A program made the position numbers and the translations under genes. The notes beneath the pieces were generated by a model. That model saw only the letters and a program-made list of their open reading frames with translations. It was not told where the DNA came from and searched no databases. A stretch of DNA of 63,222 nt, the filler included, from Reticulomyxa filosa (taxonomy: Eukaryota; Protista; Foraminifera): the NCBI GenBank assembly GCA_000512085.1. It is 19 parts of 19 records of this genome, joined end to end, with 100 filler letters (N's around TTAATTAATTAA, not from the genome) between each part and the next. Parts side by side here need not be neighbours in the genome. Positions count along the whole stretch, not along the records: positions 25,986 to 28,751 come from ASPP01011294.1; 18 more parts are not named here. One strand, given 5' to 3'. Positions 6,478 through 51,050 of the stretch are shown in pieces; position 1 is the first letter of the stretch, and each line of letters begins with the position of its first letter.

Positions 6478-9109
6478 ATGAAAAAACTGTCACACTTTCA
6501 AAATTTGTCAATAATCAACCATACAAAAAAAACGGAAGTAGAAGGAGATACAAGTTTTTTGAGATTAGTGGGATGGATAATAATGCTGAAGTTTGACCTT
6601 ATTCCAACGTATATTTTAGATTTATATCCTTCAACAGCATGTATAAGTGGTCCAGACTCAAATAATGACAGTCCTTCGATTTTAACGTTGCCGACAAAGT
6701 CACCGAAACAAGGTTTTGAAATTGGAAGTTTTCCAACAAATGAAAAGGAAGAAACGGACCAAACAGCAAACGAAGTGCAGATGATAGGGAGTTTGCACCG
6801 AGCAAAGACAGTACCAAGACAAAACCGCTCAAAGACAATAATGGACATCCTCCGCGACGACATAGACAACATATATATAAACACCTTGAGCAGCGATTTG
6901 AGATGTTTTTTGAAGACACATATTGTATTTACTTCCACTGAGTTCCAATTCTGACTATTCTAAAAATCTATTCAATCTTAAAAAAAAAAAAAAAAAAAGC
7001 AGACTTTTATTTTGTTAAATTTTGTATGATTATTTTGGGGGGGGGGGGACATGTGGAAAAAAAAAAAGTGTAATATTAGGAATACTGTATCAATTATACT
7101 TTGGCCCAATTCCACCCAATATCACCCCCACAGAATATGAAAAATGTGTATTGTATCGAGACAGTCTGAAGCGCCAAAAGATATTACAATGCTGTCATTA
7201 CTTGATAGACAAGTGTTGGAACATTGCTTTTCAGCATAGTGAGTCTTCTCAAGTTTGTGGCTTTGTAGCATACACACGTATAAATACAAACATGAACATA
7301 TACATATTGCACTTATCAAAATTGAAATGGAAAAAAAAAAAAAAAAAAAAGAAAGTAAATTTTAAGTTCGTTTTGTTTTTTTTTTTTTCAAAAAAAAAAA
7401 AAGAAATTGATGGAGTTTTTTTTAATGGAAATCCCCAACGGCAATGAAAAAGTGAATGAGTTAAAACGACTGATGGAACAACGGAATGACGCATCAAAAT
7501 TGGAAGTGAATAAAATAATCGAAATGGAATCTCATCGACAAATTGACGTGGATCGAGAATGGAAACGCCTGTCGCTAAACACCATCGACAAAACTTGTGC
7601 AGAAGAGAATAACGATTGCAAGTACATACAAATGGGCATTGTCATGAACACAAATATGATAATATAAGTCATTTTGAAAATCCAACTGACAATACCAACA
7701 ATAGTAATAATAATAATAATAATAATGAAAATAATACAATTGGTCTCATCCAATGGAAAAAACATATGCCAAAGATAGTAGAAATTGTCACGTTGATAAA
7801 TATTCAAAAAGGAGCTGTACCGATTCATGGGTTGGCCCATGCTTTGACTGCAAAACAGAGAATGCTGTTCCATTGTCTGTCCCCAATTGTCGTTTGTGTT
7901 AAGTCTTCCCTTTCACATTTGCTGACCCAACTCTTGTCAATTTATTGTGTCCTTTCAATGTTTGTCCAACCACTCCCTCCCCCCCCCTCCCCTCTTCTCA
8001 ACACAAATAAAGGAATACGTAAAAAATGCGGACAAACGTGGGGTTCAACCTTTATTCCATCATTTCAATGACACTGGGCTATGGGTCTCTTTGCAAATAT
8101 TGAGCGCGCCTGTCTTGGCCGACAGAATTGCCGTTCTCAAATACTTTGTTGCTCTCATGAATGTACTGTATGCTGTGATATTTATTTTATATTTCATTTG
8201 TTGCATTATTTTTTTCCCCCTCCCCCCCTTTTTCCTTTGCCCCCCCCCCTTAAATCAAATAAATCAAATACAAAATAGTATTTGATCGATCTTGGAAATC
8301 TTACCGGAGCTTACTGTATCTTTTGTGGGATAGAAAGCACACCTATTTATCGATTGCGAAAAACACGTGCAGTTTGTGATACATGCAGAGAGTGAGAGAG
8401 AGAGAGAGAGAGAAAGGAAAAAAAAACAACACATATATACACCGGCCAATTCATGCGCTCCGTACTATGTTATATATGCATGTATAGCACATACATATTA
8501 TATAATGTATACGTAGCAATTAATGCTAAAACAAAGTTTTAATATGTGCATATGTATGCACATATATTTATGTAGGGACTGACTCCAGAAGAAGAAGAAA
8601 TGTTAGAAAACACTAGAAATATGTTTTCGACTACAAATGGTTTTCAAAACATACGCAAAGAAATCCAGTGGCGATTGCAACACAAACTCCCTGTGTTGCC
8701 ACACATGGGCGTCTATTTCTCCGATTTGACGTGGCTGAAAGATCAGGGACCATATTTCTCTGGGCTTGGAGCAAAGTTTGATTTGATCAATTTGGCCTTT
8801 TGTACCAGTCTGTTTCAGCGATTAAAATTTATGCACATTGCACAAAAGGTTTTGAATTTACTCCATCTTTTCTTCTCTTTCTTTGTTTCTTTCTCTCTCT
8901 TATATACATACTTGCTTTTCTTACTTCAACTTGTGCAAGGTTCATTATTTAAAGACTTTTTTTTTCTCTTGGAAAAACAGAGCTATCAGAATGTGCAACT
9001 TTACGAAAGTACCGAACTGATCCACAAACTAGATGTCTCTCTGGCGATGCTTTTTAGTCTAAATCTAACAGATGAAGACTTATATTTACTTTCCAAACAA
9101 ATCGAATAA
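6478..9109 (+). CDS. Ras guanine-nucleotide exchange factor (REM + CDC25 domain), multi-exon
   Basis: REM-like CFLKTHIVFTS. CDC25 motifs FNDTGLWVSLQILSAPVLADRIAVLKYFVAL and LPVLPHMGVYFSDLTWL..DLINL, ending LYLLSKQIE. Confidence 0.85.
8387..8412 (+). repeat. (GA)n microsatellite, probably within a RasGEF intron
   Basis: agagagtgagagagagagagagagag. Confidence 0.8.
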
Positions 9110-15038: not shown

Positions 15039-16710
15039 CTACAACTCATCATGATGGGCCATTTTTTGGTGTTCTCTCGTCTGTTGATGATAAGCTTCCC
15101 TCCTTTTCTTACGCCTCTCTTCCATTTCCTCTCTTATTTTCTGTCTCCGTTCGGAGTGCTGTACGTCACGAAATTGATTCCTGTCAAAACCTCGAAGAGG
15201 TTCATCATGTCTCAAAAGTTGGATTTCTTCTCGTATTTTGTTTCGTTTTTGATGAAGCTCTTCGCGTCTGGATTGCCATTGTGCTTCGTCTATTTCGTCA
15301 TTGCTAAGTTTCTGTCTCCACTTTTCCTCCTCATCACGCAACTCTCTCATCTGTTTCATGTGTTTTTCCATTTTGTTCGGCACTGTTCGATCCTTTGGAT
15401 TGTCCCCTGTCCAATCTTTCATCTTCTCTTTATCAAAATGCCCCCACGTTTCCATTTCTTGTCGTTTTTTGTCGCGGAGGGTTTTTAGATCGTCCCACTT
15501 TTCATTGTTTACCCTTGTTTCCCTTGACCGTTCTTTTTCTGTTCATATGTGTGTACCCCTCTTAAAAAGCAAACATTATATTTACACATGTATACATATA
15601 TGTATATGTATCAATGTACCCCTTTCGCTAAGGGCTTCATCGAGTGTTCTTTTAGTTTTATCAATATGATCGAAATCGATATGATGTTCTTGATCAACTC
15701 TGTGATTGAACTTGTGATGATCTCTCGGCTGTTCGCGTTTTGTTTGTGCATGTACATCGTCCCGTGATTGGTCCTTTGTTCCCCTTTGCGATTGCGGTCG
15801 TTGTGCGACTACGGCCTTGGATAATCGTTCCAAATGCTTTATGGTGAACTCGTCCGTATCCTCCAAGCGCTTGAGCCTTTCCAAGTCCCAAGTCACTTGT
15901 TGCAATTTCAAGAGCTCTCCGAACTTAATCACCCGCGTCAGTACGATATTGTATCCTAGTGTTTCACGAGGCCATCTAATGTTACAGTTGTATTTGTCCC
16001 CAAAGAAAAAGAGGCTTCATTCTTATCTTTTTTAATGCATTTACTCGACACACACACACACACAATAAATAAACAAACAAAAATGACTTTCATACAGACC
16101 TGTGAACGGGTGCTTTGGCCAGCCAATCGACGAGATCCAAGCCATTGTTATCCTTGGCATAAACATTCGCGCTATTTTCCAATAGCTTTTTTGTCACATC
16201 GATATATGCATTTAACATGCATGTTTGCAACAGACTCATCCCTGATGGGTTTTGCGACTGGTCGTTGATGTCCACTTTGTACTGTAAATACGTGTCCAAC
16301 AGTGCTGTTGAATATTCTCTATCCTCAAATCCTATCTGCGTTTGTTCGCTTAATCGTTGGTGCGCTTTTGCTTCGCCACTGTCCACGCATATATAATACA
16401 TCGATTCCATCGCATTGCCGCCTGCTTTCCTATCCAATAGATACTTCACCATTTCCAGGCGTCCATATATTGTCGTTATATCCAACAATGTGTATCCTTT
16501 CCCGCTTTCTTCTCCACTTTTCCCTTCTGCTGCTGACGGAATGTACTTTTGCTCTGTCAGTTCCGGACTCTTTTCTACCCACTCACGGAATTGCGACAAC
16601 TCATTTGCTTTTATTGATTGGACAACATTTTGCAAGTCATTTGCTTTGATACTTTGTGATACTTTCAGCCAAAAGATACTCAAAAGTAACAATAATCCTA
16701 GCATCGTCAT
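15039..16710 (-). CDS. Ankyrin-repeat protein with signal peptide, charged coiled-coil tail and C-terminal HDEL (3 exons)
   Basis: N-terminal MTMLGLLLLLSIFWLKVSQS. Ankyrin repeats GYTLLDITTIYGRLEMVKYLLDRKA and GMSLLQTCMLNAYIDVTKKLLENSANVYAKDNNG. Phase-compatible GT-AG introns join the ORFs. Ends KMAHHDEL*. Confidence 0.8.
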
Positions 16711-17095
16711 GACCCCAACAAAAAAAGAAACGCTGTCTTTTTGTGTTCACCAAACTTGTTTAAGTAGTAAAAAAAGCACAACTTTTTGTAACCATTAAAT
16801 TTAAATTTATTCTTAAGTATAATTATTTCTTTTTTCGTGTTATTTTTGTAATGATTGAATATATTTAATATTTCGACAAAATAATATCACTTTGAAAAAT
16901 TTTAATATATCTAGATTGTTGATGCACAAACCATTCATTAAGAGATTTTGCACTTTTATCTTATCTACAAGATGTTCTACCACGACTGAAGTATAAAAAA
17001 GTTGTTTGAAATGATCAAGGGGATTTGTCTGAGTAACAAATTAATTGAACGTAATCTCTTTGAAACAATGTGTTGTTTTTTTTTAAGATATTGAC

Positions 17096-20000
17096 CTAGA
17101 TGTAATTGCCAATGTCTTTTCTTTCAAAGATGCCTAATACTTTCAGCTTGTTCAAAGTAAGTCTTTGGTTTGATTTTGTAACGGGCATTTGCAGTTTCGA
17201 AAGTAAAATTTCCCAATCTTTGGAAGTTTTGATGGAAATTTTTAGTTTTTGGATTATGTCCACGGCGTTTTGCCAATAGCCAAACACTTGTTCTTTTAGG
17301 TATTTGAACATTTGATTGACTTGGTTATGTTGAATAATTTTGTCTTGAGCAGAAATTTCGTCAAGTGAATTGGAAAGAAAATTTTGGAAGACGGAATCTT
17401 GGAATTCATGCAACGTAAGTAGCAATTGTTGATCGAGAAAGACTTTGAAATTTTTCCAGACTTGAAAAAAGACACACAAGGCATTAAAAATGGCGAGACA
17501 CTTTGTGAAAGTTTTGAAGTCATATTTTGTCTCGTCAAACAAAGTTTGATAGTATTGAATTTTCTCGGTATTTTCTTTGATGTCATTAATTTCCAAAGAA
17601 ATTTCGTGTTTCAAATATTGACTGAGGATTTGATCCAAATTGGAAGAGAAGGCTTCTTTGGTGGAACCCGAGTTGGAGGAGATAAATTTATTCAACCAGT
17701 CGGCCATGAAGGCCTCCAACTTGTTCAAAAGCGCTTGAATTTTTTGCATACTCAGTTGAATTTGTTTGGACAATTGATCGACATAAATGGATTTTTTCAG
17801 AGCAATTTCATTTTCATAGTCGATGATTTGATGTTCCAATTCGACCTTCATTGTTTCCATGTCTTTGTGAAGTACCCGATCACTGGCGGAAATATCAATG
17901 TGGTTATTTTTGATTAGCACAGTCAATTGAGATATTTCAATGATATGTTTTTCTTTGATTGAATTCAGTTCGAGTTTGATCTCTTTGAATTTGGAGACAT
18001 TTGCGGCATATGTTTCCAAAGTGGGTGGTTCGGATTGTTGGGAAAGAGGGGGAAGAATGAAGGAAGAATTGGATGCAATTTGATCGTTGGGAGCGAAAAG
18101 AAGAGGAGAGAATTGCTTCTTCTTCAAATAATTTAAATGCAAAGAAAAGCGGTGAACAATGGACATGCATTTGAAATGAAACAAATGGGCTACCACTTGC
18201 TTTAATTCTTTTAATATCATATCGCCTTGCACTTTCAATTCTTCCTTCAATATCTTGCAATCCACAAAATATATTCCACTGTGATATTGGGTTATAAACT
18301 TGTTTTCAATTTTTTCATTGGAGTGATTGCGATCGGATATGTCTTTCATTAACATATTCACAGAAAGATCAAGAATGATGTCCTCGCCATTGCCTCCATC
18401 CAAAGTGGACACCAGTTTATTCATATTCACTTGGGCACCAAAGCGATCCATAAACTGCTTGTATTTGTTATCATCGCATTTCCAATCCATATTTTGCAGA
18501 TGGATCAACTTGAACTCATCCAATTTGCTAGATATGTCTTGGCACCTTCGAAAGTCTTTATCGATCAAATGGAAGATGTCATTCACACATTGTTCAAAAT
18601 GCTTGTCTTGATGTATGATGATGTGCAATTTTGTAGGATTGAATGTACCAATATCCTCTTCCTCACCATTACCATTACTATTGCCATTGTCGCTATCGTT
18701 TGCAATACAAGACCCACGTGCCATCCCTTCACCGCATCCCTCCAATTTTCCCTTTCGACAGCAACTTGCCGTTGCAATGAGCGGCCGGAAGTTGGTCACG
18801 TACACAAGTCTCGGGACCAAATCAAAAGCTTGAATGTAGTGCTCAATCAAGGTGATAATTGAATCTTTGATATCAGTATTAGTAATGGAAAAGCATGTGT
18901 CGATTTGCTTCGGCACACGTGCGGCATCCTCCCCACTTTGAAAGAGCATGTGCGTGGTAAACAAAGATGAAAGAGGGTGTGAGCTTGCGCTTTTTTCCAA
19001 CAGAGACGCCGAGGAAGATGGAGAAAAGACAGAACTGGAATTGGAAGACAAGAGCGACAGAGTTTGTTTCATATTATTCAAACTGGATAAAAAAGCCATT
19101 ACGATGGAACAAATGAACATTTGATCAGCCAATCGAATAAAGTCGCCCAAACGATTGCATTCATTTTGCGATTGAATCATATTGCGGGTATTTAGTTCTT
19201 GCATTTCTCTTTGTTTTTGCATTGGGATGCTCTTATTACAAAGCGACATTTTCTGTTGAAAAAAATATTGATTACTTTTCATCTTCACTTGGTTCACACA
19301 TTGTGTCACAATCAATTTGATACTGTCACTCAATTCCTCCAATTTTTTTATTGCCTCCTCTTTGTGCTGCAGCTGTTCTATTTCGAATTCCTTGTTATCA
19401 TTGTATCTCATCATTGTTGGCAATGAGTTGTTTATAAATTGGCTGCTATTGCTATTATTATTGTTGTTATTGTTTGGATTGCTTTTATTAATGCTGGTAT
19501 CATTGCTATTGCTATGACCATTTTTTTTGATATCATTTGCATTTTTATTTGTGGTATCCACAGCATTGCTTTTTGCGTTTGAATGATTCTTTATTTCAAA
19601 CATTTTCAATGTTTTCACTTCGCTTAACAAATTTTGGATTTGTTGCAATGGCTGTCGAAACGAATCATTCGTTTGAAATAATTTCTTCTTCACTTGTTTT
19701 CGTTGCTTTTGGTAATGTGAGTGTCTCACTTTCCCACGCCACAACTTTTTTCAAATCAATCGAAAAATAAATTATTTTAACTTTAAAATGTTAGCAAAAA
19801 TTATATATGTATATATGTACACATATTGTTTATTTATTTAAACTCGAAATGATTTGGATTCCCGAAATCGCTTAAATGTGGGAATAGTTTGCAATATATG
19901 AAAGATAGTGGATTCGTAGATCCATCGCGATAATGATGTCGTGTATGTTGCCTCGTTTCCTCCGATTTTTGTGACATTGGAACATGTGATCGTGTAAAAT

Positions 20001-21830: not shown

Positions 21831-22241
21831 TTAATTGTGTCTGTAAATTTTGAACCCAATCCAACTGAAATAAGAAAAAAATAAGATGAAAGGGATGAAA
21901 GAAGGAAGCAACAAATTATAGTACCAATCATTAATAACAAAAGTAGTAAAAAATTTAGGAAAAAGACTACTGAAAGATAAAAAAGTAAATCCAAGTGTCG
22001 GAAAAAATTTAGTTAAAATGCTGATCATGAAAACGCTCCAAAGTGATAAAGTTGTAATGAGTAAACATAAACCCGCAAAGAAGGTTTTACACCTCCAATA
22101 TATTTCACTACACTTTGTGTGCAATTTTTCTGTTTGTTCGGCTTCTGCTTGTTCTGCCTCTGTCCATACTTTTCTTAACGCTTCGGCATTTCTTTTTAAG
22201 CCTTGCTTTCTCAGTTCACCGACTGTAAAACGTTTTTTCAT
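21831..22241 (-). CDS. PIGY: GPI-GlcNAc transferase subunit Y (PIG-Y/Eri1 family)
   Basis: Two hydrophobic segments and the C-terminal signature NDWYYNLLLP..YFSWIGFKIYRHN*. Confidence 0.8.
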   Translation of the reverse strand: MKKRFTVGELRKQGLKRNAEALRKVWTEAEQAEAEQTEKLHTKCSEIYWRCKTFFAGLCLLITTLSLWSVFMISILTKFFPTLGFTFLSFSSLFPKFFTTFVINDWYYNLLLPSFIPFILFFSYFSWIGFKIYRHN

Positions 22242-22483
22242 TGTTTTGTGTTGTTTATCAACAATGCTTTCTTACGTCTATTTCAAAAAATCAGGAGAGA
22301 GGATCCTTCCTTAGTTTCTCTGTTTAGTCGTTTCTATGATAAAGCAATTTTGTTCTTTGATTCACCTCAAATACATATTTTCGNNNNNNNNNNNNNNNNN
22401 NNNNNNNNNNNNNNNNNNNNNNNNNNNTTAATTAATTAANNNNNNNNNNNNNNNNNNNNNNNNNNNNNNNNNNNNNNNNNNNN

Positions 22484-25400
22484 CATTGACGAAACTTTGA
22501 AGAATTTGGAGAAGGGTGGAAAAAATATGGAAGGATCTTTTTTTGAAAGGCGTCAAAATAATATTGACACTTTGTTAGTTTTGGCTTTGGTTAATGTATT
22601 ATTTATTATTTATCAAAATGGTGGTTTTGCAGTTTTGTAACACTCTTTACATAATTATGTATGTATATATAAGCACTGCATTGTATTTACAGTATACATA
22701 AGATATCAAAACAAAATTAAAAGAAATATGTCGAAAGCAAGAAAAAAAGTCTCAATGGTATCCAGAATTGTTTGAAAAAGCATTGAAAACTCCAGAATTG
22801 GTTAAAATAAAGTCACCAGATATTAATGCCAGCCAATTGCATTTAGCTGTGATTGACCCTCAAGTATATTCTCTTCAAAGCAACTTTCAAACTTGCTTTC
22901 CTTTCAGTAATTGCATTCACAAACGGTGTCAAAAGCAGTGCTCCATATATCCTGATCCATCATACAATAATTTAACTTCACTTGTGAATAACTTTGGAAC
23001 AAGATTTAATTGACAATGATTATTCGGCGGAAAGCCACTCGCGAATATGCAATGGATTTGGTTCAAAACTTTTCGAAGCATGAATATGCCCCAGCGAAAC
23101 AAAGTATTCTTCGAGATATCTTTGTGTGTATGGCATTGTTATTGTGTGATAAATTGTCCATTGCAACCATTGAAGCGACTTTACATTGTTTCCATCCCAT
23201 TATTTCCCATTATGATTATTTAATATCTGTTGCCTTGGATAGCGACAAGAAAGTAAGGAATGATGAATATCCCGGACAAGGGTTAGTGGATATGACTTTG
23301 TCTCTTTGGAAATCCATTCTATCCACCACAAACGTGCAATCAGTTTTTCCCAATTCGATTTCAATTGTCTTGGATTTCATGTATAAACATTTACCAGGTA
23401 AAAATACTAATCTAATCAATACGGTATTGGTAAGCGCTCGAAACATTGAAATAAAGTGTCTTGGGCTCATACATATAAATGCAGATCAATTTTTCAATGA
23501 AATGGAACATTTGACCGAGCAAGATTTTTTGAGAAATGAAAAAATCGCCACTTGTATCATAGAAAATTATCTCGCAAATCAAAATGCATCTAAGGAAAAA
23601 TATCTTCTCTTTGTTCAAGATTTACTCACTGCAATCAAACGCGTGGAGAGAATTAAGGAAGATAAGGACAAATATGGAATATATACCTCCATTTTGTCTA
23701 ACTTATATTCCAAGATTGATAATATATCCATTTCCAAAATGCAAATTTTAAAAGAAATGCTAATGCATGAATGTTTGCGCGGCAGTATTAGTCTATATTC
23801 GACTGAAGCAGTACTATTGAATCGTTGTTTGGAATCAATACTTTTAAACGAACAAGTGGATAAAAATAGTGAGAGTTGGACGAAGTGGTGTAATCAAATT
23901 CGTCAGAATGAAATTGGATTGATTATGAAAATTTCAACAACAAAAGTGAATTTGGTTAAGCTTATTACAACCATGATTAACGAGGATATAAATGTGTCAA
24001 AACTAAATGAAAGCCAGAGCATGCACAAATTATTGCAAAAAATGAAACAACTGCTCTTCAGCACTGAGAATTGCAAGTATACACGCTCTTTGCATGTGTG
24101 GTTTTTGAAACAACTTTACATGTTGAAAGGGATCCATTGGATTGAAATTGTCTTTACGTATCCAGCAATCCGTCAATGCTTCAAGCTATTTCGACAAGGC
24201 AATCTAATCAATGTGTTTGGATTACTTCGTGAAAGGGAGTGGCATAATAATACTTTCAATCCCTTCTTTGAAATCTATGGAAACAGGGATTACGCTAATA
24301 TATTAAATGAAAACATAACCCAAAACACTTTCTCTGTTAATGACTCATCCCTTTCTTTTCGAATAATTGCAGAATCTTTGTCACTGATATATTTGTCTGG
24401 TAACAACTACTCGGAAATGCAATTACAAAGTTACTTCTATTTTCTCCTTTTTCTCAAACATATTGAAGCAAACAAATCCAACGCAAATAAAAATACGAAT
24501 ATTTCATATAGACTTGCGTACACATATCCAACAGTGTTTCACACCAGGACCTGTAAAAAGAATATTTTTGCAAATCTTCACTCATTTGACATCATCTCCA
24601 AGGGACATCCAATCGTCTTATTGGAAGTCTACAGGAGATCCACTTGACTTAATCGTGATAAGATTATGTTTCCATTTTATGTCAGTTCTCCCATTCATGA
24701 AACGCAATCCATTTCGATTTCTATTTGATGAATCTGAGCTATTCTTGTTCGACAAAGGTTATGAATCGGATACTTTGAAAATCCATTATTGTTCGCATAA
24801 TCACCCACTTTTAATCAATGCTTCGGTATCTAAAGATGTGACATGTCCATGGAAAGATTGTGATGCCACAATTTCTAGAACATCTATCAATAATTCATTT
24901 CCCAAATCGAAGAATACAACAGACACAAAGAGTATTTGGTCTATATTGAGGAGATATTATACGTCTCCCAAAAAGAATAGAGCCAAGTGGTTTGAGACCA
25001 TTGACGTCGACATTGTTGCGATTTTTGTATCATTTGCTGTTACTATTACGAAGTGAAGGAGTTCCACAAGATGAAAGAAAAATTCAAGAGCTGATGAAGC
25101 AAAACAATAAACAAGACGTCTTCAAAATTTTATTGAAACAGATAAAACAAGATTTCAAAAGTTTAGAAATACAAACAGATTTAAATGAAGAACTATTGAA
25201 TATTGCTCTTCATTCGTGGATTAAACATTTCTCTGAAAACTTTAAAACATGGTATCCTCAAGGACTTACTCGTGGAGACTTAACAGAGGTTTATGAATTT
25301 GAAAAGAGGTTGGATAATGAATATTCGACATTTTTTAATTCAAAAAACGAGTTCATTAAACTCAGAAATAAAAGTGAACTTGAACCAAATGATAACAACA

Positions 25401-25885
25401 AGTTTAAAGAATTAATGGATGAAATTGAAGAAACAAAGGAAATGAATCAATGTTATGAAGCCGAGCATCTCCCACAACTATTTTTAAAGATTCAGCCATT
25501 TTCATGGAGAGATTTGTCCCATGTTTTTAATAATAATCCTTCTTTATCACAAAATTATCCTTTGATTGCTAAATTGTTGAAATGCGACGAGAGTATTTGG
25601 TATATTCAATATCTACCCTCCATTGTCAATTTGATCAGGTTTGTGCACATGGAATACTCACGACAATGGTTTTCAGATGAGTTTCGTCAAATTCGTGTGA
25701 GTGATGTATTGAAGCAACAATATCAATGTAGGATATGGTGGGAACACTTCATACGCTGTTGGAACTTCTTTGCATTGGATTGCGAAAAGCTGAGCAATAA
25801 TTGTCAAGATTTGTCAATTGAACGATTATTCATCATTGATCCCAATGCAAACAATACACAATTGAATATTTACAAAATAATCCAA
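22484..25885 (+). CDS. RNF213/mysterin-like giant E3 ligase, C-terminal region fragment (frame-disrupted)
   Basis: About 1000 aa of helical coding sequence in four overlapping ORFs. WFLKQLY; RZ-finger-like HYCSHNHP..TCPWKDCDATI; LRPLTSTLLRFLYHLLLLL ~ LSPVVFLLIRLLTHLALLL; IQYLPSIVNL ~ LQFLPEILAL. Frame changes at about 23000, 24460 and 24975. Confidence 0.6.

Positions 25886-25985: not shown

Positions 25986-26021
<36 letters not shown>
25986..26021 (+). repeat. (AT)n microsatellite at contig edge
   Basis: About 18 AT units. Confidence 0.9.
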
Positions 26022-26025
<4 letters not shown>

Positions 26026-26090
26026 GTATTTATTTTAACTATTTATAATTTTTTTTTTTTTTTGTTAAAGCATTATTTCCTTTGACCCAA

Positions 26091-28704
26091 CTAAACTTTT
26101 CTTATATGGACAAATACTTCGTCCCTGTCGTTTCGGTATACGTCAAGCGCATCCCTTAAGGTAGTTCCGAGTGCCTGTCGCAGTGAAAAAAGGGAGGACA
26201 GAAAGGGGACGACGAGACCAAAAGCAACGGCAATCGTGACGCCGTGGGAATCGAGAAGCAATAGACGGTCGGTCTCACTTCTGTCCAAATTTGCAAATTG
26301 TGCAATTTTCCATGCAACGAGCGCGTAGCAAGCATTAGCGAGTGGAAGACCGATGACAATGCCGATAACGGAAAACAGCAGTGACTTGGCGGATAGCAGG
26401 TGCAGCAGTGTAGTCTTGCGCATACCTAAGCACCGCAGTACACCCAATTCGCACGTGTGCACTTCAACATCGCTAAGCAGCAGCGAATAGATTACGACGG
26501 ATGATAAAATCACAATCACTCCGGCAATGGTATCCAGTGATGATTGCAGCACCAATCGAATGAATACAAACATTTGCATTGCGATCAACAATGGCGCATA
26601 CACCGTATCTCCATACCAACGATTCGACAATCGAAGCATTACACTCCGACCAAACTCCAATATCGACCGTTTCATCTCATTGTAATCCGATTGCTTGTAA
26701 ATGTCCAAACGCTTTTTGTGATTGATCACTGTCATTTGACTGAAGTCGTTCACTTTGAACTTGTTACGCAGCTGATCGCTTGCGTAGTTGTAGTGTTCAC
26801 TGTTATTCACTATGTCTTTCTTTAACCAACTCGTTGTTTCCTTTTTTTTTGTTAATTCGTTGGGAAGGGAGGGAAAGGGAAAAAAAAAGAGGGACTCTTT
26901 TTAACTATCCCTAAAAAAATTAATTGGAGTGGGTCGGTCATGATGGCACTAAAGTTAGCATGCGTGAGAAAATAATCGACGGCGGATACTGTTTGCATGG
27001 TTTGTCGAATATTTGTGGCGATTTGACTGGTCACATAGTTTTGCAGCCATTGAGACTCCAACATGACTACGCCTCCTAACTGCAATGGCCATTTTCCGTT
27101 GCTGTCATCGATCACATCTCGAATTCTAAAGTCTTGCCACTGAGCTGGTCCATTGTTGCGTATATTGTTATTATTACTATTTTCATTCACAATTGCCAGC
27201 ACTATCGACCATCGAATTTCATTCATCGTGTAACTGCCTGTTTTTAGCCTTCTTAATGTTTCCATCACTTGTGATTTCGATATGTTCCACCGCCACAACA
27301 AAGACGGAGTCTCTTCGATGGCCTTGACTGTTTCATTTACTTCCGTTCCATTTATGAACAATCTGTCGTCCCATTCTTGCACAGTACGTATGGTCATATG
27401 TTGTATACAATAATAATAATAATAAAAAAAAGATGTCACTCCAAATCAGGATTGTCTTTTTTTTTTTTTTTTTTTTTTTTTGGTATCAAAAAGGAATAGA
27501 ACACTACTTCACTGTGGATTTCATCGCAAATGGATCGAATCACCAGACGAACGTAATCGTATTGATTCGAGTCGATGCACTTGTTTAGAATAGTTACATT
27601 TATTATATCGCTGACATTGAAAGCGCATCTTTGCTTTCCTAAGCAATGGCTCTCTATCGCCTTTGTTTTGTGTTAATGCAACTTCAAACAAAACAAAAAA
27701 AAAAAAAAAAAAAGAAATATATATGTATAAATGTACAATTTGTAAATATTAATATATGTTCATATATGATATATATGCATTTTTTTTTTTTTTTTCATGC
27801 GCTCATTCAAACTGTTTTGACATCAATGTAGCACTCCAAATTTTTAAAATCCCCACTCGAAAACGAGTTTTGACAAGAGCCAACAATATTTCCAAGTTTG
27901 GCATATTCTATTGACAAAATGAACCTTTGATAAGGGCACGTCAATTCAAGCTGTCCATTTGCAACAGTGGCCTCACTACGGTTTTCGCTGTGCAAGATTT
28001 CGAGTGAAACGTCGTTACATTGTGTATAATCTGCATGTTGTAATTGTGCATATGTTCGATTGTACTTGTGATCAGTACCGAAGCTACGTAACGTATACAA
28101 AAAAAAAAAAAAATCACTAAACTTTGATAGCAGTGTGGAATGAGACAAGCTTCAGTTTTGCCTTGAAGTGCTCCAGATCCGGTCAAGTAGCAGAAGGGTC
28201 TGTCGGAAATGTGGAGCCCGTGATCTGGGACTCTACAAAAGTTTCTTTGCAAATTTTTGGAGTTTTGTCCGACTTGCATGGCATTGACCAATGACAAGGT
28301 ACTTCAACCTCCCATGAGAGACATACGTCACCACTCATTGAATGGGACGTGTCGCCTTGATACGCGACGCCATCACCGTCGTAGCAATTCACATTCATTG
28401 GCGGGGACGTGACGTTCGGTTGGTACACAAAGCCCGGATACAAGTTCAGCCCGTTTATGGCAGCCAACATATGTATCATGCCAATGACCAACATATCGCT
28501 GCTACTACTTTGCCCATTGCTTGTATCAGTTGATCGTGCGGGGTCGTCATTGGAAGATTGGGTACTCTGAAATCCATCTCCATTCCCGTTGCTGTTGGAC
28601 ACTTGCATCTGAGAGATCAGCAGCTGCAACATCTCCATAAACGATATACGTATCCATTGCCCAATCGCTTGTTGTTTGCTTTCAAATTTCAGCGCTTGCA
28701 TCAC
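26091..28704 (-). CDS. FtsX-like (ABC3/MacB-type) permease with kringle and SUEL galactose/rhamnose-lectin domains, multi-exon, partial at both ends
   Basis: Kringle: CYDGDGVAYQG..SGDVCLSW..NFCRVPD..RPFCY..EACLIPHC. SUEL: LELTCPYQRFILSIEYAKLG..GSC..C..HCLGKQRCAFNV..C..Y..C. FtsX: VIYSLLLSDVEVHTCELGVLRCLGMRKTTLLHLL plus TM helices. About 2 frame changes. Confidence 0.75.
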
Positions 28705-31308
28705 CGCAGGAGTTATGTAACACTTTTTTTTGTTGTTTTTTTTTTTTTTTTNNNNNNNNNNNNNNNNNNNNNNNNNNNNNNNNNNNNNNNNNNNNTTAAT
28801 TAATTAANNNNNNNNNNNNNNNNNNNNNNNNNNNNNNNNNNNNNNNNNNNNACACTTGTTTGTGATGTTTGCACATTTGATCAACGATTGATCTACTCAA
28901 AATTGACTGATATAAAAAACTTGTCCTTTTCAATGTGCAAAAATACAAAAAAATACATAAAGTTTTCAGATACAAAATGTCATTTTGTTCATTCTATTGA
29001 AAATAAAGTCATTAGTATAAATAGAGATATAATTGTTATTGATGTTATTCATATGTTAGTCTTTTCTTTTTCATCATTGATTCGACCATTTCGCTTGTTA
29101 AATTATGAAATGATATGATTGACATAAAAAAACGATATCTTGTCAGTTGCGGCATAATTCACTATTAAGATTTCCAACTACTCTTCTTTCAAAGTAGCGT
29201 TTGTATTTGTCGTTTGATGTCGCTACACTTTTGGATGCGCTTGGCACTGTCGAGCTGTCCTGCTAATTTCACCATAATGCATACCGATTCACACACCGAT
29301 GATTGATTGACCACCAATAATCCATTGCATCCCTCGCTCGTTCCGTCATTAAAACAAAAGTTCCTGTCAGAACAAAGTGTTCGAGACAAAGGCACGGAAA
29401 GCGAAGATGAGATACAGAAAACGAGTCCAATGCAAGAGCCTCCAGAATATGTACCTCATCGATCTAAGAGTCACAACAAGTCAATGATATTTGCCGTGGC
29501 AAGTTTGGATTGGAAAAAGAAAGTCTTTTTAAAGTAACAAAAATACTTTCGCATTAAATTGTGTCAATAAGATTATGTTTTTTTTTTGCTTTATTCAAGT
29601 TTTTAAAACAAAAAGGACTAATTATGTCAAGAAAAACAAAAACAAGAGTTTTTTCATCTTTTGATTTCTCCCTCCAATATTATCCATTTTCATAGGAACT
29701 GACCAAGTTCAAATATTGAGAAATGATATCATAAACAAACAAATTGAGGCAAAATGTTGATTTTATTTATTTTTTTTCGATTAGATACTGAATAACTTTA
29801 CTTGGAAAAAAATCATAAAACATCAAAAGACTTTAAGTTGAGGGTAAAAAAAACCCCTTGCATCGTCAAACCTATCATTAAAAGACAGGCTATTATCATT
29901 TGGATCATATGTTGCACAAGAAGAAATTGGAGATGAATCTCTTTACAAGTCTTCTTTGTTGGAGAATAATAAAAAAGAAACGAGAAAGAACAAAGACAAC
30001 TCAGAATTACCTCACAACTTGAAAGAANNNNNNNNNNNNNNNNNNNNNNNNNNNNNNNNNNNNNNNNNNNNTTAATTAATTAANNNNNNNNNNNNNNNNN
30101 NNNNNNNNNNNNNNNNNNNNNNNNNNNTTGAACGACGACAACATTTGGAAACAAAGAAGATTACTTCTGTCGGGCAGCTCCTACACTCGTGATCACACCA
30201 GTGGAAATTATTAAAATCTTCACAATCTGTGTTGAAATTGGTTGGTGGAAAAGGTGGTTTGCAGTGGGGAGTGTCAAGAGTCGCTTCATCCTCAAGTTGT
30301 AATTCTTTTTTCACTATCTACCTGCATAAACTCAGGTCTTTCAAGTTAAAAGACTACCTCGTTCTAAGAAATAGAACACAATACTCAAAAGAAGACAAAA
30401 AACAAAAGAAAGAGCCTCACAAAATCTAGTTAATCGATTTAGATTGAATTTGTCCCAAATCTTTCTCTTAACGAACTTCGCTGCTGCCTTGATCCTAATG
30501 TCTGGTTTCCATGTTCGGTCTCCAACAATGAAATATTTCATCGATAGAGACAAATTTATCCACCAACTGCGACGTAAATTTTGGTACCTTTTTTTTTTTA
30601 GATGAAAAGAATGTAATTTGTTAAATTGACAAAAAGGCAAAATATTGTAAAACAAGCACCTCACTCAAAGTTGAACACAGCACTAAATAATACAATACGT
30701 TACAAAAAGTAACTAACAATAACATTCATGCTTCAACATTGAAGCAATAAATTTTACTTTAAAATTTGTTTTGGTGAAAACAAGCATTGCAATATTTTAT
30801 ATAATTCAAAATGATATCAATTTAACCAACAAAACATTTGTAATAACATTGCTCAGCTCAGAGGGAATCCAAGGGTCCCTTTGGGACCACTCTCAGATTC
30901 TACGAGACTTCAGCAAATGATAAAAAATCAACAATATCAGTCACCACTAACAAATTTACAAGTGGATATATATCTTTTTTTTTTAAATTTTCCATTTGTT
31001 TTTTTTTTGAAGCTTTTGCACTGGGAGGGCGTGAGGGTGTCAGACTACTCCCATCACTGTTTTTAGCACTTTCCTCATCCCCAAAGTGCAAACAAAAGCA
31101 AGTTGAAAAAGCACCTGGTCCAAAATAGGACATGGCACTAAATAAAACAAAAGAAAAGTACAATTATAAAACCAAACACCCAATTATGCGTTCTCTGAAA
31201 TAATTTTANNNNNNNNNNNNNNNNNNNNNNNNNNNNNNNNNNNNNNNNNNNNTTAATTAATTAANNNNNNNNNNNNNNNNNNNNNNNNNNNNNNNNNNNN
31301 NNNNNNNN

Positions 31309-32986: not shown

Positions 32987-33406
32987 TCAAAAATCACAAC
33001 TTAAAGTGAAGTGAGATGAAATGAAGGAAATTAAATGAACAATTTGTTTAAATTTTTTAAGGTGAGTTTGGGTTCTCAGGAAGTTGTCCTTTGTCAATAA
33101 ATTGAAGCAAGTTTTGATATTTTGTTTGTATCTCATCTTTGTTTCACTTGTCTCCGTATAGTTACGTTTCAAATATCTATATTTATGCACTTGATGAACA
33201 CCCTCGAGATCCTTTAATTGCCATCTCGCATACGCAAATTGCTTTTTTATTACAGTCTCGTCTTTACAGCTTTCATGTTTTCGAAACTCCTCTTTCACTC
33301 TATTTAGTAGCTTTTGTCCATCTCCTGGATACAACTTGCTCATATATACAAATTGTTTGTACAAATTTCTTCCCTTTCGTTTCAAGCTAGTTGACAACCA
33401 AGGCAT
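32987..33406 (-). CDS. LYRM5: LYR-motif protein, LYRM5/ETFRF1-like
   Basis: NLYKQFVYMSKLYP..VKEEFRKH..DLEGVHQVHKYRYLKRNY ~ KLYKNLLYLGRDYP..ELEALYFLRKYRAMKQRY. Likely ATG at 33406; 3' end uncertain. Confidence 0.8.
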   Translation of the reverse strand: MPWLSTSLKRKGRNLYKQFVYMSKLYPGDGQKLLNRVKEEFRKHESCKDETVIKKQFAYARWQLKDLEGVHQVHKYRYLKRNYTETSETKMRYKQNIKTCFNLLTKDNFLRTQTHLKKFKQIVHLISFISSHFTLSCDF

Positions 33407-33908
33407 TATCTTTTTGAACTTTGAATAAAGCTCAATTTTTGGACAATCAAAAGGGGTCGTAGAAACGGCCTTGTTCGAGCACGGCATCAATACAACACGT
33501 TGTTTTTTTGGACTACCTTGAAGAAGCATTTAGTAATGAAACTTTAATTTGCATTGCAAAATTCGACGACATTGGTCCCGCATATATCAGAGACTCAACT
33601 TTCGAACAAACATCCCCAAATATAAAAAAAGGGGGGATTTGGAGTTTAGCCAACAAAACGTAAACGTATGGACCGATAAAAAAAATCCTCGAGGAGAGCA
33701 AAACGGGAGAAGGGATAAAAAAGAGTAGTCAGAAGGGGAAAAAAGTTAAAATCTGGGGAATATTTTTCTGTTGTTTTTTTTTTAAAAAAGAGAGATTTTT
33801 TTTGTGGTTAGTGATTTTAAAAGAGAGTTATGAAAATTTTTTTTTGACGTAAAAAAAAAAACACTTATAGCAAACGACCATAAAAGGGATCAAATCACAA
33901 AAACAAAC

Positions 33909-37755: not shown

Positions 37756-39371
37756 TGGTGCCTTGGTCTGCAGTCGCTGTTCAAAACATAAATTGATGAA
37801 CATGGAAGGCATAATGCAGAGAGCTTGTAAGCAATGCTAGTTGAGTACATTCCAATTCAAATATTAAGATATGTATATATGTATATATATGTTTGTGTGG
37901 AACACACAAAAGCACTAAAGCCAATGAGACGAAAAAAAAACAAATGAACGGGATGGAGAACATGGAACCGATAACAAGTGACGTGGACGAGAACGAGTCG
38001 TCGGACAATGAATACCAGACAGAAGAGAACACCTTGCATAAAATTGCTTGCTATGTGGATGTGGAGGTTGGAATAGAACATATATTTGATTCGTTTGGAC
38101 GCGGAGTGGGATCTTATGTTCTCGTCCCAAACCCACACAACAACGACTCTCAATATTGTGTTTCATTGGTCGTTCATACCAAACGTGGCCTTCAAACCTT
38201 TGCCATTGCTCTCGTCAATAAAAAAGAAGGCGTCTATTTTAGACTTTCAGTTTTGTTACATCCACATCTTCAATTCCACTTCCCTTCCCTCCTTGAGGGT
38301 CTCTTGTAATTTTGTTCTTTTTGTCCTGATATGTTTATATACCATTACACAATCCTTCTCATTCAAATGATAGTCCCACAAAAGCAAAGATTTTGCTGAT
38401 TTCAACCAAATGATTTTTTTTTTGAGTACGAAAGAAAACTTACTTTTTACTTATCCAATTCCACGAGTTCATGTCCAAGTTTAGTTTTATTTTGTTTTGT
38501 TTTTTTTAAAAAAAAAAAAAAATAATAACACAATAATAATAAATCAAATAAAAATGTAAAAAAAAAAAAGGACAAAACTGGCTTGTCGACATGCCTATCA
38601 TTATCGACTGGTGAAAGTGCAGCCAATTCTTCACCAACCGGAAATGATGGCGATATGCTCGTTGCATTGTTCGACTTTAAGGAGAGCAAAGAACGGGAAC
38701 TGGAATTTGAAATGGGGGACCAAATACGACTCATTCGAAAAGATAACAGTGGTTGGTGGTTGGGCAAATTGGATAAAACGGGAGACATTGGATGGTTTCC
38801 TTCCGAATTCACCGCGCCAATTACTGTCCCAACTTCCAATCGAAACTGTGCAAGCTTTACTTCGGAAATTCACTCTTGTGTCTCTCAGCAAGCTAGCTAC
38901 AGTAGCAGTAGCAGTACCAGCAACACCGCTCCTTCGCTCACCCTTGCTAGCCATTCGTCCCGTCCATCCGATCGCAATCCCAATCGTGATCTAAAAATAT
39001 TCAAATCCATTGAAAGTAATCTACTTTCTCCTTCCAGTGACCCACGTCATGGAGCTTCCACTTTCATTGACAGAAATTACTATGTTATTTCTTATCACGA
39101 TTTGAAAAATAAAAACTTTGATGAAACTATCGATAAACAACATCTCGAAGTTATCTATACAATATATATATATACATATATATATGTGTATATACATATT
39201 TGTTGTTCGTTCGTTTGTTGGTCTGTTTAGTTACGTTATTTTGAATACAACCGACAGATGTATTTGAGTGATTTGGAATTTCAAGAGCTATTCCAATGTT
39301 CACGACGAGAATTTAGCGCACTGCCTGTGTGGAGACAAAAGCAAAGAAAAAAGGCTCTGGAATTGTTTTGA
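37756..39371 (+). CDS. FYVE / SH2-like / SH3 / villin-headpiece adaptor (5' partial; exons 37756-37839, 37913-38249, 38374-38478, 38571-39149, 39258-39371)
   Basis: Four phase-compatible GT-AG introns give one open frame: GALVCSRCSKHKL..QRACKQCY (FYVE C-half); GSYVLVPNP..YCVSLVV..LQTFAI..GVYFR..DFADFNQMIFFL..LFTYPIP (SH2-like); VALFDFKESKERELEFEMGDQIRL..GWWLGK..GWFPSEF (SH3); HLEMYLSDLEFQELFQCSRREFSALPVWRQKQRKKALELF* (headpiece). Confidence 0.85.
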
Positions 39372-41697: not shown

Positions 41698-42434
41698 ATC
41701 CAGGTCGACCTGGCGCCCTACCTGCCGGGCATCCTCAAGACCGCGCGTCTGGGCTACGACGGCAAGGGCCAGGTCCGCGTGAAAACCGCCGACGAAGCCC
41801 GCGCCGCTTACGCCAATCTGGGCGGCCAGGCCTGTGTGCTGGAAAAGTGCTGGACCTGAAGCTGGAAGTGTCCGCCATCGTCACCCGCACCAGCCCGGCG
41901 CAAGTGGCGGTGTTCCCGGTAGCGGAGAACATCCACAAGAACGGCATTCTGGAGGAGTCCATCGTACCGGCGCGCATTGCGCCCGAGCTGGCCGCACGCG
42001 CCCAGCAATACGCCAAGCAGCTGGCCGAGGCACTGGATTACGTCGGCGTACTGGCTGTGGAATTCTTTGTACTGGGCGACGACAGCCTGGTGGTAAACGA
42101 AATCGCACCGCGCCCGCACAACTCCGGCCACTACACCATCGACGCTTGCGTCACCGACCAGTACCAGCAACAAGTGCGCGCCATGTGCGGCCTGCTGCCG
42201 GGCAATACCGGCCTGTTGTCACCGGTGGTGATGGTGAACCTGCTGGGCGACGTGTGGCAGGACGACGGTGGCGAGCCCAACTGGGCGGTGCTGATGGAAG
42301 CGCCCAACGCCCACCTGCACCTGTACGGTAAAAAGCAGGCGCGGGTTGGCCGCAAGATGGGCCACTACTGCGTGCTGGCAGCCAGCGTTGACGACGCGCT
42401 GGAACAGGCCCGTGCACTGAAAGATACGCTGTAA
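41698..42434 (+). CDS. purK: N5-carboxyaminoimidazole ribonucleotide synthase (bacterial, 5' partial)
   Basis: [47 protein letters not shown]. One missing base at GAAAAG near 41845 splits the frame. Confidence 0.96.
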
Positions 42435-42442
42435 GCATTCAG

Positions 42443-42474
42443 GCGACGCCCACAAGGCGTCGCTTTTTGTTTTG
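42443..42474 (+). terminator. Intrinsic-terminator-like hairpin between purK and purC
   Basis: GCGACGCC-cacaa-GGCGTCGC followed by TTTTTGTTTTG. Confidence 0.65.
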
Positions 42475-42487
42475 TGAAGGAAGTTTC

Positions 42488-43351
42488 ATGACCCAACTGA
42501 CCAGCCTGAAAAAAATCTACTCGGGTAAAGTACGCGACCTGTACGAAATCGACGACCAGCGCATGCTGATGGTGGCCAGCGACCGCCTGTCCGCCTTCGA
42601 CGTGATCCTGGACGACCCGATTCCGGGCAAGGGCCAGATCCTAACCGCCATCTCCAACTTCTGGTTCGATACGCTGAAAGACGTGGTGCCGAACCACCTC
42701 ACCGGCGACAAAGTGGAAGACGTGGTGGCTGCGGCCGAGCTGCCGCTGGTAGCCGGCCGTGCCGTGGTGGCCAAGCGCCTGAAGCCGGTGATGATCGAAG
42801 CCGTGGTGCGCGGCTACCTGGCCGGCTCCGGCTGGAAGGAATACCAGAAGTCCGGCACCGTGTGCGGCATCGAACTGCCGGCCGGCCTGCAGGAATCCAG
42901 CAAGCTGCCGCAGCCTATCTTCACCCCGTCCACCAAGGCGGCGGTGGGCGATCACGACGAGAACATCACCTACGCCCAGTGCGAAGCCATTGTTGGCGCC
43001 GAGCTGGCCGCCAAGGTGCGTGACACCACCATCCTGCTGTACAAGACCGCTGCCGAGTTCGCGGCCAAGCGCGGCATCATCATCTGCGATACCAAGTTCG
43101 AGTTCGGTCTGGACGCCGACGGTACACTGGTGCTGATGGACGAAGCGCTGACCCCGGATTCCAGCCGCTTCTGGCCGGCCGACAGCTACGCCGAAGGCAG
43201 CACCCCGCCGTCGTTCGACAAGCAGTTCGTGCGCGACTGGCTGGAGGCTTCCGGCTGGAACAAGCAGCCGCCGGCGCCGCAAGTGCCGCTGGACGTGCGC
43301 GAGAAAACCGCCGCCAAATACCGCGAAGCGCTGGAGCGCCTGACCGCCTGA
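42488..43351 (+). CDS. purC: SAICAR synthetase (bacterial)
   Basis: [59 protein letters not shown]. Shine-Dalgarno-like GAAGGAAG upstream of ATG 42488. Confidence 0.98.
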
Positions 43352-43394
43352 GCCTGTTACCACGGTTGGCCGCCAGGCTAGCCCTGCTCGTACC

Positions 43395-43432
43395 GACACC
43401 CGTCGTCCACCTGCTGGACGGCGGGTGTTTGT
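43395..43432 (+). terminator. Stem-loop downstream of purC
   Basis: ACACCCGTCGTCCA-cctgc-TGGACGGCGGGTGT, a 14-bp stem with one G-U pair and a short T tail. Confidence 0.6.
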
Positions 43433-44329
43433 CATGGCGCTGCGGCGCGCGGCAGCCACGCTGGCAGATGCCGGGNNNNNNNNNNNNNNNNNNNNNNNNN
43501 NNNNNNNNNNNNNNNNNNNTTAATTAATTAANNNNNNNNNNNNNNNNNNNNNNNNNNNNNNNNNNNNNNNNNNNNTGGAAATAAAAAGGATGAAAAAGGG
43601 GAAAAAATGGAGAAAAAGGGCGTGAGGAACGATGTATACGTGTTGGTGGATATGTGGATTATTTATAATAACCTTCGTTGGCAATCCAGCAGAAAATAGA
43701 TGAAAAAATTATTAAAGCCCCCATAAAATTGCGTTGTTGGTTTGTGGAGATGAAAAATTATGGGCATTACGATAATTCAAATTGTTATACGTCCATCCAC
43801 TCATCTTGTTCAATCTCAACAACTTCATATCACTTCGACTGCATTAACGTCAAATTCCCATTCTACAATCGACTTCACAATTTCTCCATGATCAACATCA
43901 ATTGTTGATATCAAAGTGTCTTGTCATACGCACGCAATGACACGTTATTCATTGTCAAAGACTTGACGATCTCGCAATTACCCATTGGACTCGTCTGGCT
44001 ATTAAAATGTTTTGATACCGAAAAGTGTTTGAATCGCGCAACATCGTGGGAATGTGATGTCCAACTAAAGTCGTTCGAGTGGCCAAAAGCGGAGAACATT
44101 ATGATCCGGTGTTATTGCGATCAATCGAAATTCCTAAAAGTTGTCATAAATAAACAGTTTGTCTTTTTGTGATTAGACAAAACAAATCAAAAAACTTCTT
44201 AAAAAAAAAACTTATATGTACAGACATAAAAATAAGTTCTTAGAACAATCGGCGAGTCACTTGGGGAAAAGGTGGTCATGTGAATCGAAAAGGTCAAAAA
44301 CGAAGATTCACAAAAAAAAAAAGATCATG

Positions 44330-47830: not shown

Positions 47831-49357
47831 TTAGTTTCTGTCCGTGCGAAATCCCTGTGTCAAGACTTGCAAAGGAGTTCTTTCGGTGAGATCAAAAAGA
47901 GGGCCCTGCCACATTTTGAGTTGTCGTTGGTCGTCAACATAAGCAGGATTCCAAAAAATGCCAGTGCAAATACCTTCCAGTTTATCACGACAAATCCGAA
48001 TTAAATCACGTAAAAATAGATATTGACCTTCTTCGGAGTATTCATATGAGCTGTTAAAATCAACCTTGGGTTTTGTCAGAGGATATCCAGTTTCGGCAAT
48101 GACAATGGGAAATCGTCTGTCAAAATAATCATATATGTACTTGAGTTCCTGGAGTTTGGACAAGTCGCAACCTTGCGCGAGAACTGTAGTGTGCAATCAT
48201 AGGGCCATTTCATATTTTCTCTGTCATATTCTGCACAATCATTCCTTAGCTCCGCCCTCTCTCCATACAAAAAAAAAAAAAAAAAAAAAACTTGGATAAA
48301 AAGTTAATCCAATGACATCAAAAGCAACTTTCCAACGATCATTTAATTCACTATAAAATTTGATAATGTTATCAGCACCATTTCTGCCCAAATGCAATTG
48401 ATTTCCCAAAGATGTGTGCAACATGATTCGGGGAGAATGGCTGACACTACGAATCCCATTAATTGCGGATTTCAATAAGCTAGCAAAAAAAAATGAATTT
48501 TTCTCTTGACAAACGGGGGAACCAATAAATCCACCCGATTTTATGCAGCCTTGTGTTGGCTCACTAAACAAAAAGCCGTTTTCAATTTCATGTCCAATTG
48601 AAACTATTTCTGGCAATGCATCCACGTTCTTCAACTTTTCCATTATTTCTTTTGACCATTGAAACACTGCGCCCATCAATCTCTTATCTTTCATTTATTA
48701 TTTATTTGTCTTTTTTCTTGTTGTGCTATTATTCGGACATAAATATACACACCTGCGTAAGATTTCCACGCATGTGGTTTCGATTGGGAAATGTTACTGG
48801 TAAAGTTATCACTGAAATGCAGCTCTAACAGCAATCGGAAATTTTCCTTTGCACGCTTTGCTAATTTCACTATATCATTCACTGATCCATATTTCAATGT
48901 CATCGAAGGATCGTTATATACGCTCAATCGCATTGTCGTTACAAGACTTTTTTATATTCATTTATTATATACTTACATTTCATTTTTTTTGAAGACCCCT
49001 TTTTTTTTGTGCAACTTGTGCTCCAATAAAGTGTACTGAATGTTGTAGAGCTCCGTTCAACTTGTTTTTTAGAATTGACAGTCCATCGTTTGTTGAGGAG
49101 TGATTAACGGACCAATAAAAGACATTATTCTCTCCATCATTGTCCATGCTCTCCAGTATGGTGAAATCTACACCGTACATGAAATTTTTCAATGCTCGCC
49201 GATGGTAGGTCAATAATGGGGCTCCCGAAGGGAACAAGTGATCCGCTTGGGTGACGAGAAACATCATAATGGCACCAAAACAAAATACAGTAGCAGACCA
49301 AAGACCTTGCTGAATTTTGTTGCCATATCGTTTACTTGGCTCACTTGTTAGTTGCAT
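47831..49357 (-). CDS. Glycoside hydrolase family 53 (endo-beta-1,4-galactanase-like), N-terminal membrane anchor, multi-exon
   Basis: YGVDFT, MRLSVYNDP, LAKRAKENFRLLLELHFSD..QSKPHAW, PEIVSIGHEIENGFLF, FDVIGLTFYP, PIVIAETGYP, SEEGQYLFL and GIFWNPAY occur in GH53 order. Confidence 0.88.

Positions 49358-49669: not shown

Positions 49670-51050
<1,381 letters not shown>

Follow-up and report, generated by a model that had tools for sequence, protein, structure and literature searches.

A kringle and a SUEL-like domain inserted in the ectodomain of an FtsX/MacB-type permease of the foraminiferan Reticulomyxa filosa

A short contig of the foraminiferan Reticulomyxa filosa carries a kringle, a lectin-like domain and an FtsX-type transmembrane unit, all on the minus strand, which raises the question of whether the three belong to a single protein and, if so, what the two inserted modules would do in a permease. 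The contig (2,766 nt; 25986–28751) is filled wholly by the gene fragment and forms part of a window, the whole stretch of 63,222 nucleotides analysed here, in which 19 pieces of the genome are joined. The contig has 100-nt N/TTAATTAATTAA spacers on either side and, because such spacers separate the joined pieces, its neighbours in the window are not its neighbours in the genome.

Gene model of the contig

A homology search of 1.84 billion representative sequences returned 532 matches at E ≤0.001, of which the best 150 were listed. Four relatives were central to the analysis: P0003 (labelled Ammonia, and as a transcriptome protein), P0004 (Bolivina), P0152 (Nonionella) and P0155. The R. filosa gene is truncated at both ends of the contig, with about 280 N-terminal and about 590 C-terminal residues of the aligned relatives lying beyond it. 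The available text of PMC13746701 describes an R. filosa assembly of 50,809 scaffolds with an N50 of 3,609 and a mean intron of 87 bp, figures that fit the short contig and the introns of 65–152 nt found here.

The spliced model contains four GT..AG introns (92, 152, 137, and 65 nt) and a single X, and yields 727 stop-free codons. The first exon held by the contig (28123–28722, minus strand, as are all features below unless stated) follows an A-rich acceptor ending in AG and is collinear with the four relatives; it encodes the last part of the ectodomain's N-terminal half, then a helical linker and the kringle. Intron 1 (28031–28122, 92 nt, phase 1) is followed by two exons of the SUEL-like domain (28030–27813 and 27660–27513) on either side of intron 2 (27812–27661, 152 nt). 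Intron 3 (27376–27512, 137 nt) has a variant with a 16-nt micro-exon (27455–27440), which is also in frame and scores nearly the same (432.5 versus 431.8 bits); an acceptor at 27363 was rejected, being out of frame with a donor at 27508. The permease ectodomain resumes in the next exon (26906–27375), in which a pair of N-x-T/S sequons is conserved and the GKWPLQLGGV segment described in the earlier note, with the GKWP motif, is present (27097–27068). Beyond intron 4 (26841–26905, 65 nt), the last exon held (26097–26840) encodes the end of the ectodomain and the first FtsX transmembrane unit. A fifth intron probably begins immediately afterward (25986–26096), with a GTTTAG donor at 26096 identical to the donor hexamer of intron 1; the candidate is 88% AT and gives way to an (AT)n repeat where the contig stops, and the relatives extend some 590 residues past it. 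Judged from these features, the stop at 26091 looks to lie inside this intron.

The database product for the contig, hypothetical protein RFI_15418 of R. filosa (P0001), omits the second half of the kringle (28258–28123) along with the last stretch of the FtsX unit (26220–26097), and translates intron sequence as protein. Against a profile of the four relatives, the corrected model scores 432 bits, compared with 289 for P0001; the database gene model is thus corrected by the present analysis.

The remaining pieces of the window were also surveyed. ORFs for polyubiquitin (three units; 49673–50491, minus), SH3 (38529–39227, plus), RasGEF (8576–9106, plus), ankyrin (16093–16746, minus), PIG-Y (21834–22271, minus), LYR (32990–33529, minus), and DUF1168 (581–961, minus) are ordinary eukaryotic genes or pieces of them. 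One piece (41698–43475) has a GC content of 64.5% among pieces of 28–40% and contains a SAICAR synthetase ORF (42392–43348, plus, E = 4e-79); it is likely a bacterial contaminant contig. An AT-rich piece contains part of a gene for a family 53 glycosyl hydrolase (48242–48694, minus, E = 2e-15), which may belong to the host and descend from a bacterial gene. One long ORF of 884 aa (17099–19750, minus) and a series of three that shift frame from one to the next (23010–25885, plus; 545, 222, and 312 aa) gave no Pfam match at E 1e-4.

The kringle and its frame change

The kringle that the earlier note had placed at about 28390–28130 is borne out at 28386–28130, with all six canonical cysteines, although it is broken by one frame change and matches Pfam Kringle (PF00051) in two frames: positions 1–36 in one (E = 3.8e-5) and 41–79 in the other (E = 1.8e-5). 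Taken separately, the halves score 24.4 and 25.4 bits against a Pfam cut-off of 34.3. The kringles of all four relatives are intact and score 59–62 bits against the same cut-off (E ∼1e-16), and the kringle profile matches plasminogen at E = 5e-44. Identity between the R. filosa kringle and those of the relatives is 41–44%, versus 22–30% in the flanking segments and 39–40% in the FtsX unit; measured in this way, the kringle is the best conserved outer part of the protein.

The foraminiferan kringle shares its six-cysteine pattern with the kringles of plasminogen, apo(a), HGF, and ROR. Unlike these, it lies inside a polytopic permease, has an insertion of 3–4 residues in the loop after NPD, and is without the residues of the lysine site. 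In kringle 4 the latter are Asp56, Arg70, and Trp71, according to the available text of PMC8373733, and they are replaced by G, E/S/K, and K/T in all five kringles. At the level of sequence, therefore, the canonical lysine-binding site has been lost from these domains.

Two frame changes had been suspected, one within the kringle and one ahead of the lectin domain. The first is real. The second is intron 1 (92-nt GT..AG, 28122–28031), so that just one true break is left, a single frame change that leaves the kringle one base short of frame. It can be placed anywhere in 28258–28297, where the profile score ranges from 69.6 to 73.7 bits with its peak at 28297; the codon-usage score is best at 28296, and the two together point to about 28296–28290. 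At the break point of best score no base is repeated three or more times in a row, which weakens the reading as a homopolymer error; runs of A4 and A5 are present within the allowed interval. By our own estimate, a sequencing error has a slightly better than even chance of being the cause, a young lesion an appreciable but smaller one, and an unusual micro-intron is improbable. A 23-nt GT..AG stretch (28295–28273) would restore the frame of the kringle; as an intron it is disfavored by its AT content of 52%, compared with 65–82% in the four introns of the model, and by the 6 loop residues it would leave, where the relatives have 10–12.

An alternative accepts the fusion as genuine in Foraminifera but takes the present copy for a recently dead pseudogene, a possibility we take seriously while regarding it as less probable than a sequencing error. 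The single frame change without a clear homopolymer is consistent with it, as is the divergence of this copy, which is 30–32% identical to the relatives, whereas these are ∼45–62% identical among themselves. Against it, no further stop or shift occurs in 727 codons, the four introns are canonical, the A4 and A5 runs fall within the interval allowed for the frame change, and, of the invariant positions of the kringle, 19 of 25 are kept after the break, compared with 12 of 20 before it.

The permease host

The ELGVLRCLG stretch that the earlier note assigned to FtsX helices is present at 26450–26424, within a Pfam FtsX match at about 26528–26163 that scores 41.9 bits against a cut-off of 25.5 (E = 1.2e-10). 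Only part of the first permease repeat is covered by the window, and the full-length relatives contain two FtsX copies. Hydropathy analysis gave 10 segments with a 1+6+3 spacing for P0152, a layout that we take to be that of the TCDB entries for the eukaryotic ABC3 family (E-ABC3), and 11 segments for P0155; by homology, the full R. filosa protein would have about ten helices.

P0004 was modelled with AlphaFold, with high confidence everywhere but in the insert and the N-terminal tail. When the model was compared with 48,161 chains, the top 12 hits were all ectodomains of type VII ABC systems (Z 8.7–12.2), led by MacB (Z 12.2; 3ftj, rmsd 5.2, 201 residues aligned), LolE (11.9), and YbbP (11.8), with LolC, YknZ, HrtB, and YtrF also found. 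The aligned ranges run from about residue 155–171 to 839–852, that is, over the permease core that flanks the insert. The top 15 Foldseek rows for P0004 agree on a type VII ectodomain, none reaching E 0.001. In addition, an E-x-G-x-L-R-x-x-G motif, which matches the corresponding stretch of MacB and YtrF in the second repeat, is nearly invariant in both repeats, every one of 35 rows keeping its R and G. In the R. filosa fragment it reads ELGVLRCLG; it lies on the cytoplasmic side after the second helix, where type VII permeases contact the ATPase. The host protein is best read as a eukaryotic type VII ABC permease of ABC3-like type.

Our leading explanation, put at a little short of even confidence, is that the contig is the middle of a gene for a two-repeat MacB/FtsX-type permease with the insert in its first outer domain, and that this insert would dock a protein partner, to be moved via a separate, putative ATPase. 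No ABC ATPase was found fused to the permease among 152 proteins scanned, and neither Walker motif (A or B) nor the signature of an ABC ATPase was found in six-frame translations of 83 family loci (403 kb) or of the window. The 32 ORFs that flank the permease in five of the larger loci have no relation to it, being other eukaryotic genes, or have no assignment. The lack of a linked ATPase is nevertheless weak evidence, as no more than 11 of the 83 loci are 8 kb or longer and eukaryotic partners need not be linked. Were the family to have lost its ATPase, the insert might serve adhesion or as a scaffold, anchoring proteins of a surface coat, a shell matrix or an organelle lumen with no power stroke. 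The missing fused or nearby ATPase is what this account, which we hold to be unlikely, would predict; set against it is the near invariance of the cytoplasmic motif in both repeats, from which something would still be expected to bind there.

Cluap1, DRC7, and ARMC9, which we take to be ciliary genes, are found close to the permease in two compact loci of eukaryotes (L003, 5554–7407 and 20615–24151; L014, 5919–7211); their proximity is probably chance.

The SUEL-like domain

The second domain of the insert had been described as a SUEL lectin split by an intron at about 27990–27515. The split domain is there, at 28019–27526 (with intron 27812–27661 inside it), and is better termed SUEL-like. 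It has eight cysteines, as do all of the five domains known here, and scores 27 bits with Pfam SUEL (PF02140), under the cut-off of 31.4; all five domains match that model weakly (maximum E 10), the R. filosa domain being the best by E-value. A profile built from the five rows matches the lectin domain of LAT-1 at E = 2.9e-5, and five of its six PDB matches are entries with the rhamnose-binding lectin (RBL) fold. A structure search of the Atlas gave a TM score of 0.66 over 96 residues, the accompanying feature score of 0.79 serving as a lead only. The domain has a SUEL/RBL fold. Searches with the single exons did not detect it, and two matches were treated as chance: chloramphenicol acetyltransferase, at E 0.4, and Fijivirus P9-2, at E 6e-4 but below the cut-off. 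Both structure predictions have low confidence over the insert (pLDDT ∼30–55); the second, made from six rows, has a mean pLDDT of 34, and its Foldseek matches to the RBL fold (best E 0.026) are likewise a lead only.

The domain shares eight cysteines and the RBL fold with latrophilin, CSL3, the C terminus of plant β-galactosidase, and Plasmodium P113. It differs from SUEL/RBL domains in falling under the Pfam cut-off and in its missing sugar motifs. The motifs of rhamnose-binding lectins are YGR, DPC, and KYL in the available text of PMC10817417, with GTY as a further motif in that of PMC7482062, and each is found in none of the five SUEL-like domains. The missing GTY is shared with P113, whose RBL-fold domain is judged an unlikely lectin and binds protein, according to the available text of PMC7482062. 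Identity of the SUEL-like domain to the relatives is 23–28%, no better than that of the flanks, unlike the kringle.

These results bear on the proposal of the earlier note that the protein senses prey glycans, which finds no support in the sequence, given the absence of all four sugar motifs and the precedent of P113. A broader form of it, in which the SUEL fold uses a non-canonical site to bind sugars of prey or substrate and the permease relays the signal in the manner of BceAB, appears quite improbable. The fold itself and the eight cysteines kept in five of five domains agree with such a role, and BceAB, a type VII system, both senses and detoxifies according to the available text of PMC5985334. 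Yet no domain retains YGR, DPC, GTY, or KYL; P113, a top Foldseek match of the low-confidence model, combines the same fold with a missing GTY and binds protein; and the domain is conserved no better than its surroundings.

Relatives and distribution of the insert

The fusion of kringle, SUEL-like domain and permease is genuine. P0003, P0004, P0152, and P0155 each contain, in a single chain and in the same order, permease sequence, a kringle, the lectin-like domain and permease sequence again, so that the two modules lie within the ectodomain. That a kringle/lectin gene was mis-joined to a permease gene, or merely neighbors one by chance, is refuted in effect and retains almost no probability, for although the contig is short and the assembly fragmented, permease sequence flanks the insert on both sides and the four relatives share the domain order within one chain. 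For the same reason, two of the outcomes that the earlier note had named as fatal to its reading, a chimeric contig and separate transcripts, fail, one of the four single-chain relatives being labelled as a transcriptome protein. A further protein labelled Bolivina (P0026) is 98% identical to P0152, and the Bolivina and Nonionella labels may therefore not be independent.

Pfam scans of 152 proteins of the wider family identified a kringle or SUEL domain only in P0001 and the four relatives, and in none of the 147 other members, many of which are fragments. By alignment, the insert region of the four intact relatives comprises 345–381 aa with 14 cysteines, and that of 80 other rows 26–297 aa (median 111.5) with at most 2 cysteines. 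This survey used 85 of 90 rows, the five without flanks being dropped; the row for P0001 is mis-aligned (140 aa, 2 cysteines) and was not counted among the four. Profiles of our own for the kringle and lectin-like domains found no convincing further case in 164 proteins and six frames of the 83 family loci. Weak kringle- or SUEL-like scores in L073 (iE 0.0011), L069, L025, and L027 were treated as chance, that in L073 being antisense to the permease. Metagenomes scanned with the foraminiferan alignment yielded no case among 269 candidates.

In a quick tree of 60 of 157 rows, the R. filosa protein grouped with the four relatives and with P0006 and P0016 (SH-aLRT 93, under the 95 mark). P0006, P0016, and P0151 are fragments that group with the kringle-bearing proteins in this tree, and P0153 and P0154, from the profile search, are fragments that resemble them. 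P0006 retains the linker following the lectin-like domain, which indicates that additional members of the kringle subfamily exist, divergent ones included. Few family members have organism labels, further ones seen being Thecamoeba, Flectonema, and Bulimina; with that coverage, the kringle/SUEL-bearing form is likely restricted to Foraminifera. Three family members (L081, L082, and L083) lie on short contigs of 4–10 kb in bacterial MAG assemblies and are probably eukaryotic contamination.

Discussion

For the permease, the closest known systems are of two kinds. The first is the eukaryotic ABC3 family (TC 3.A.1.207), named in the available text of PMC7997004 and made up of eukaryotic permeases with FtsX domains. 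The 532 matches form such a family, with two FtsX repeats and about ten helices, and by this layout are candidate members of TC 3.A.1.207. The kringle/SUEL-bearing proteins differ from the 147 other members scanned in having these domains at all, the insert region of the others being shorter and nearly cysteine-free. The second comprises the bacterial type VII permeases MacB, LolC/E, YknZ, YtrF, and YbbP, which have the ectodomain fold in common with the foraminiferan permease (Z 8.7–12.2) and whose FtsX unit is matched by the family profile at E values down to 4.8e-10. According to the available text of PMC5985334, YbbP is built from a pair of permease units, with a pair of helices linking them and a pair of outer domains, and the full-length relatives have the same layout. 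In contrast to the bacterial proteins, the foraminiferan permease is eukaryotic and contains introns, carries disulfide-type modules in its ectodomain, and has no fused or adjacent ATPase that could be found in 152 proteins and 83 loci (only 11 ≥8 kb).

The domain architecture read in the earlier note therefore stands, given the same order in four single-chain relatives, as does its novelty. Automated annotation already assigns FtsX and Kringle to P0003 and P0155; a literature search, with subscription journals largely outside its scope, found neither a paper describing a kringle/SUEL permease fusion nor a described function for the eukaryotic type VII branch.

By homology, the insert would face the cell exterior or the lumen of an organelle, a placement that the cysteine pattern and the two invariant N-x-T/S sequons of the permease ectodomain fit. 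In the explanation favored here, the kringle and the SUEL-fold domain would together form a docking site for a protein partner, and a separate, putative ATPase would move or activate the docked partner through the ectodomain by mechanotransmission. Type VII systems, in the available text of PMC5985334, hydrolyse ATP in the cytoplasm to power processes beyond the membrane, and their Sabre subdomain may be tailored to particular tasks. A bolder form of this explanation, which we offer tentatively and consider rather doubtful, is that Foraminifera grafted animal-type kringle and RBL modules onto a moving ectodomain, producing an ATP-driven machine of the cell surface or a lumen that grips and pulls on or activates a specific extracellular protein, its putative target being, for example, a protein of the pseudopod coat or the shell matrix. 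If true, a eukaryote would possess an ABC receptor that works by mechanotransmission.

Type VII ABC systems have been studied as bacterial machines, and their eukaryotic branch has been named. The foraminiferan proteins reveal that the type VII ectodomain fold tolerates a graft of about 250 residues. Moreover, an insert of two modules that is likely limited to one lineage and is conserved within it offers a handle on the family as a whole, as its ligand would reveal both the target of these permeases and their site of action.
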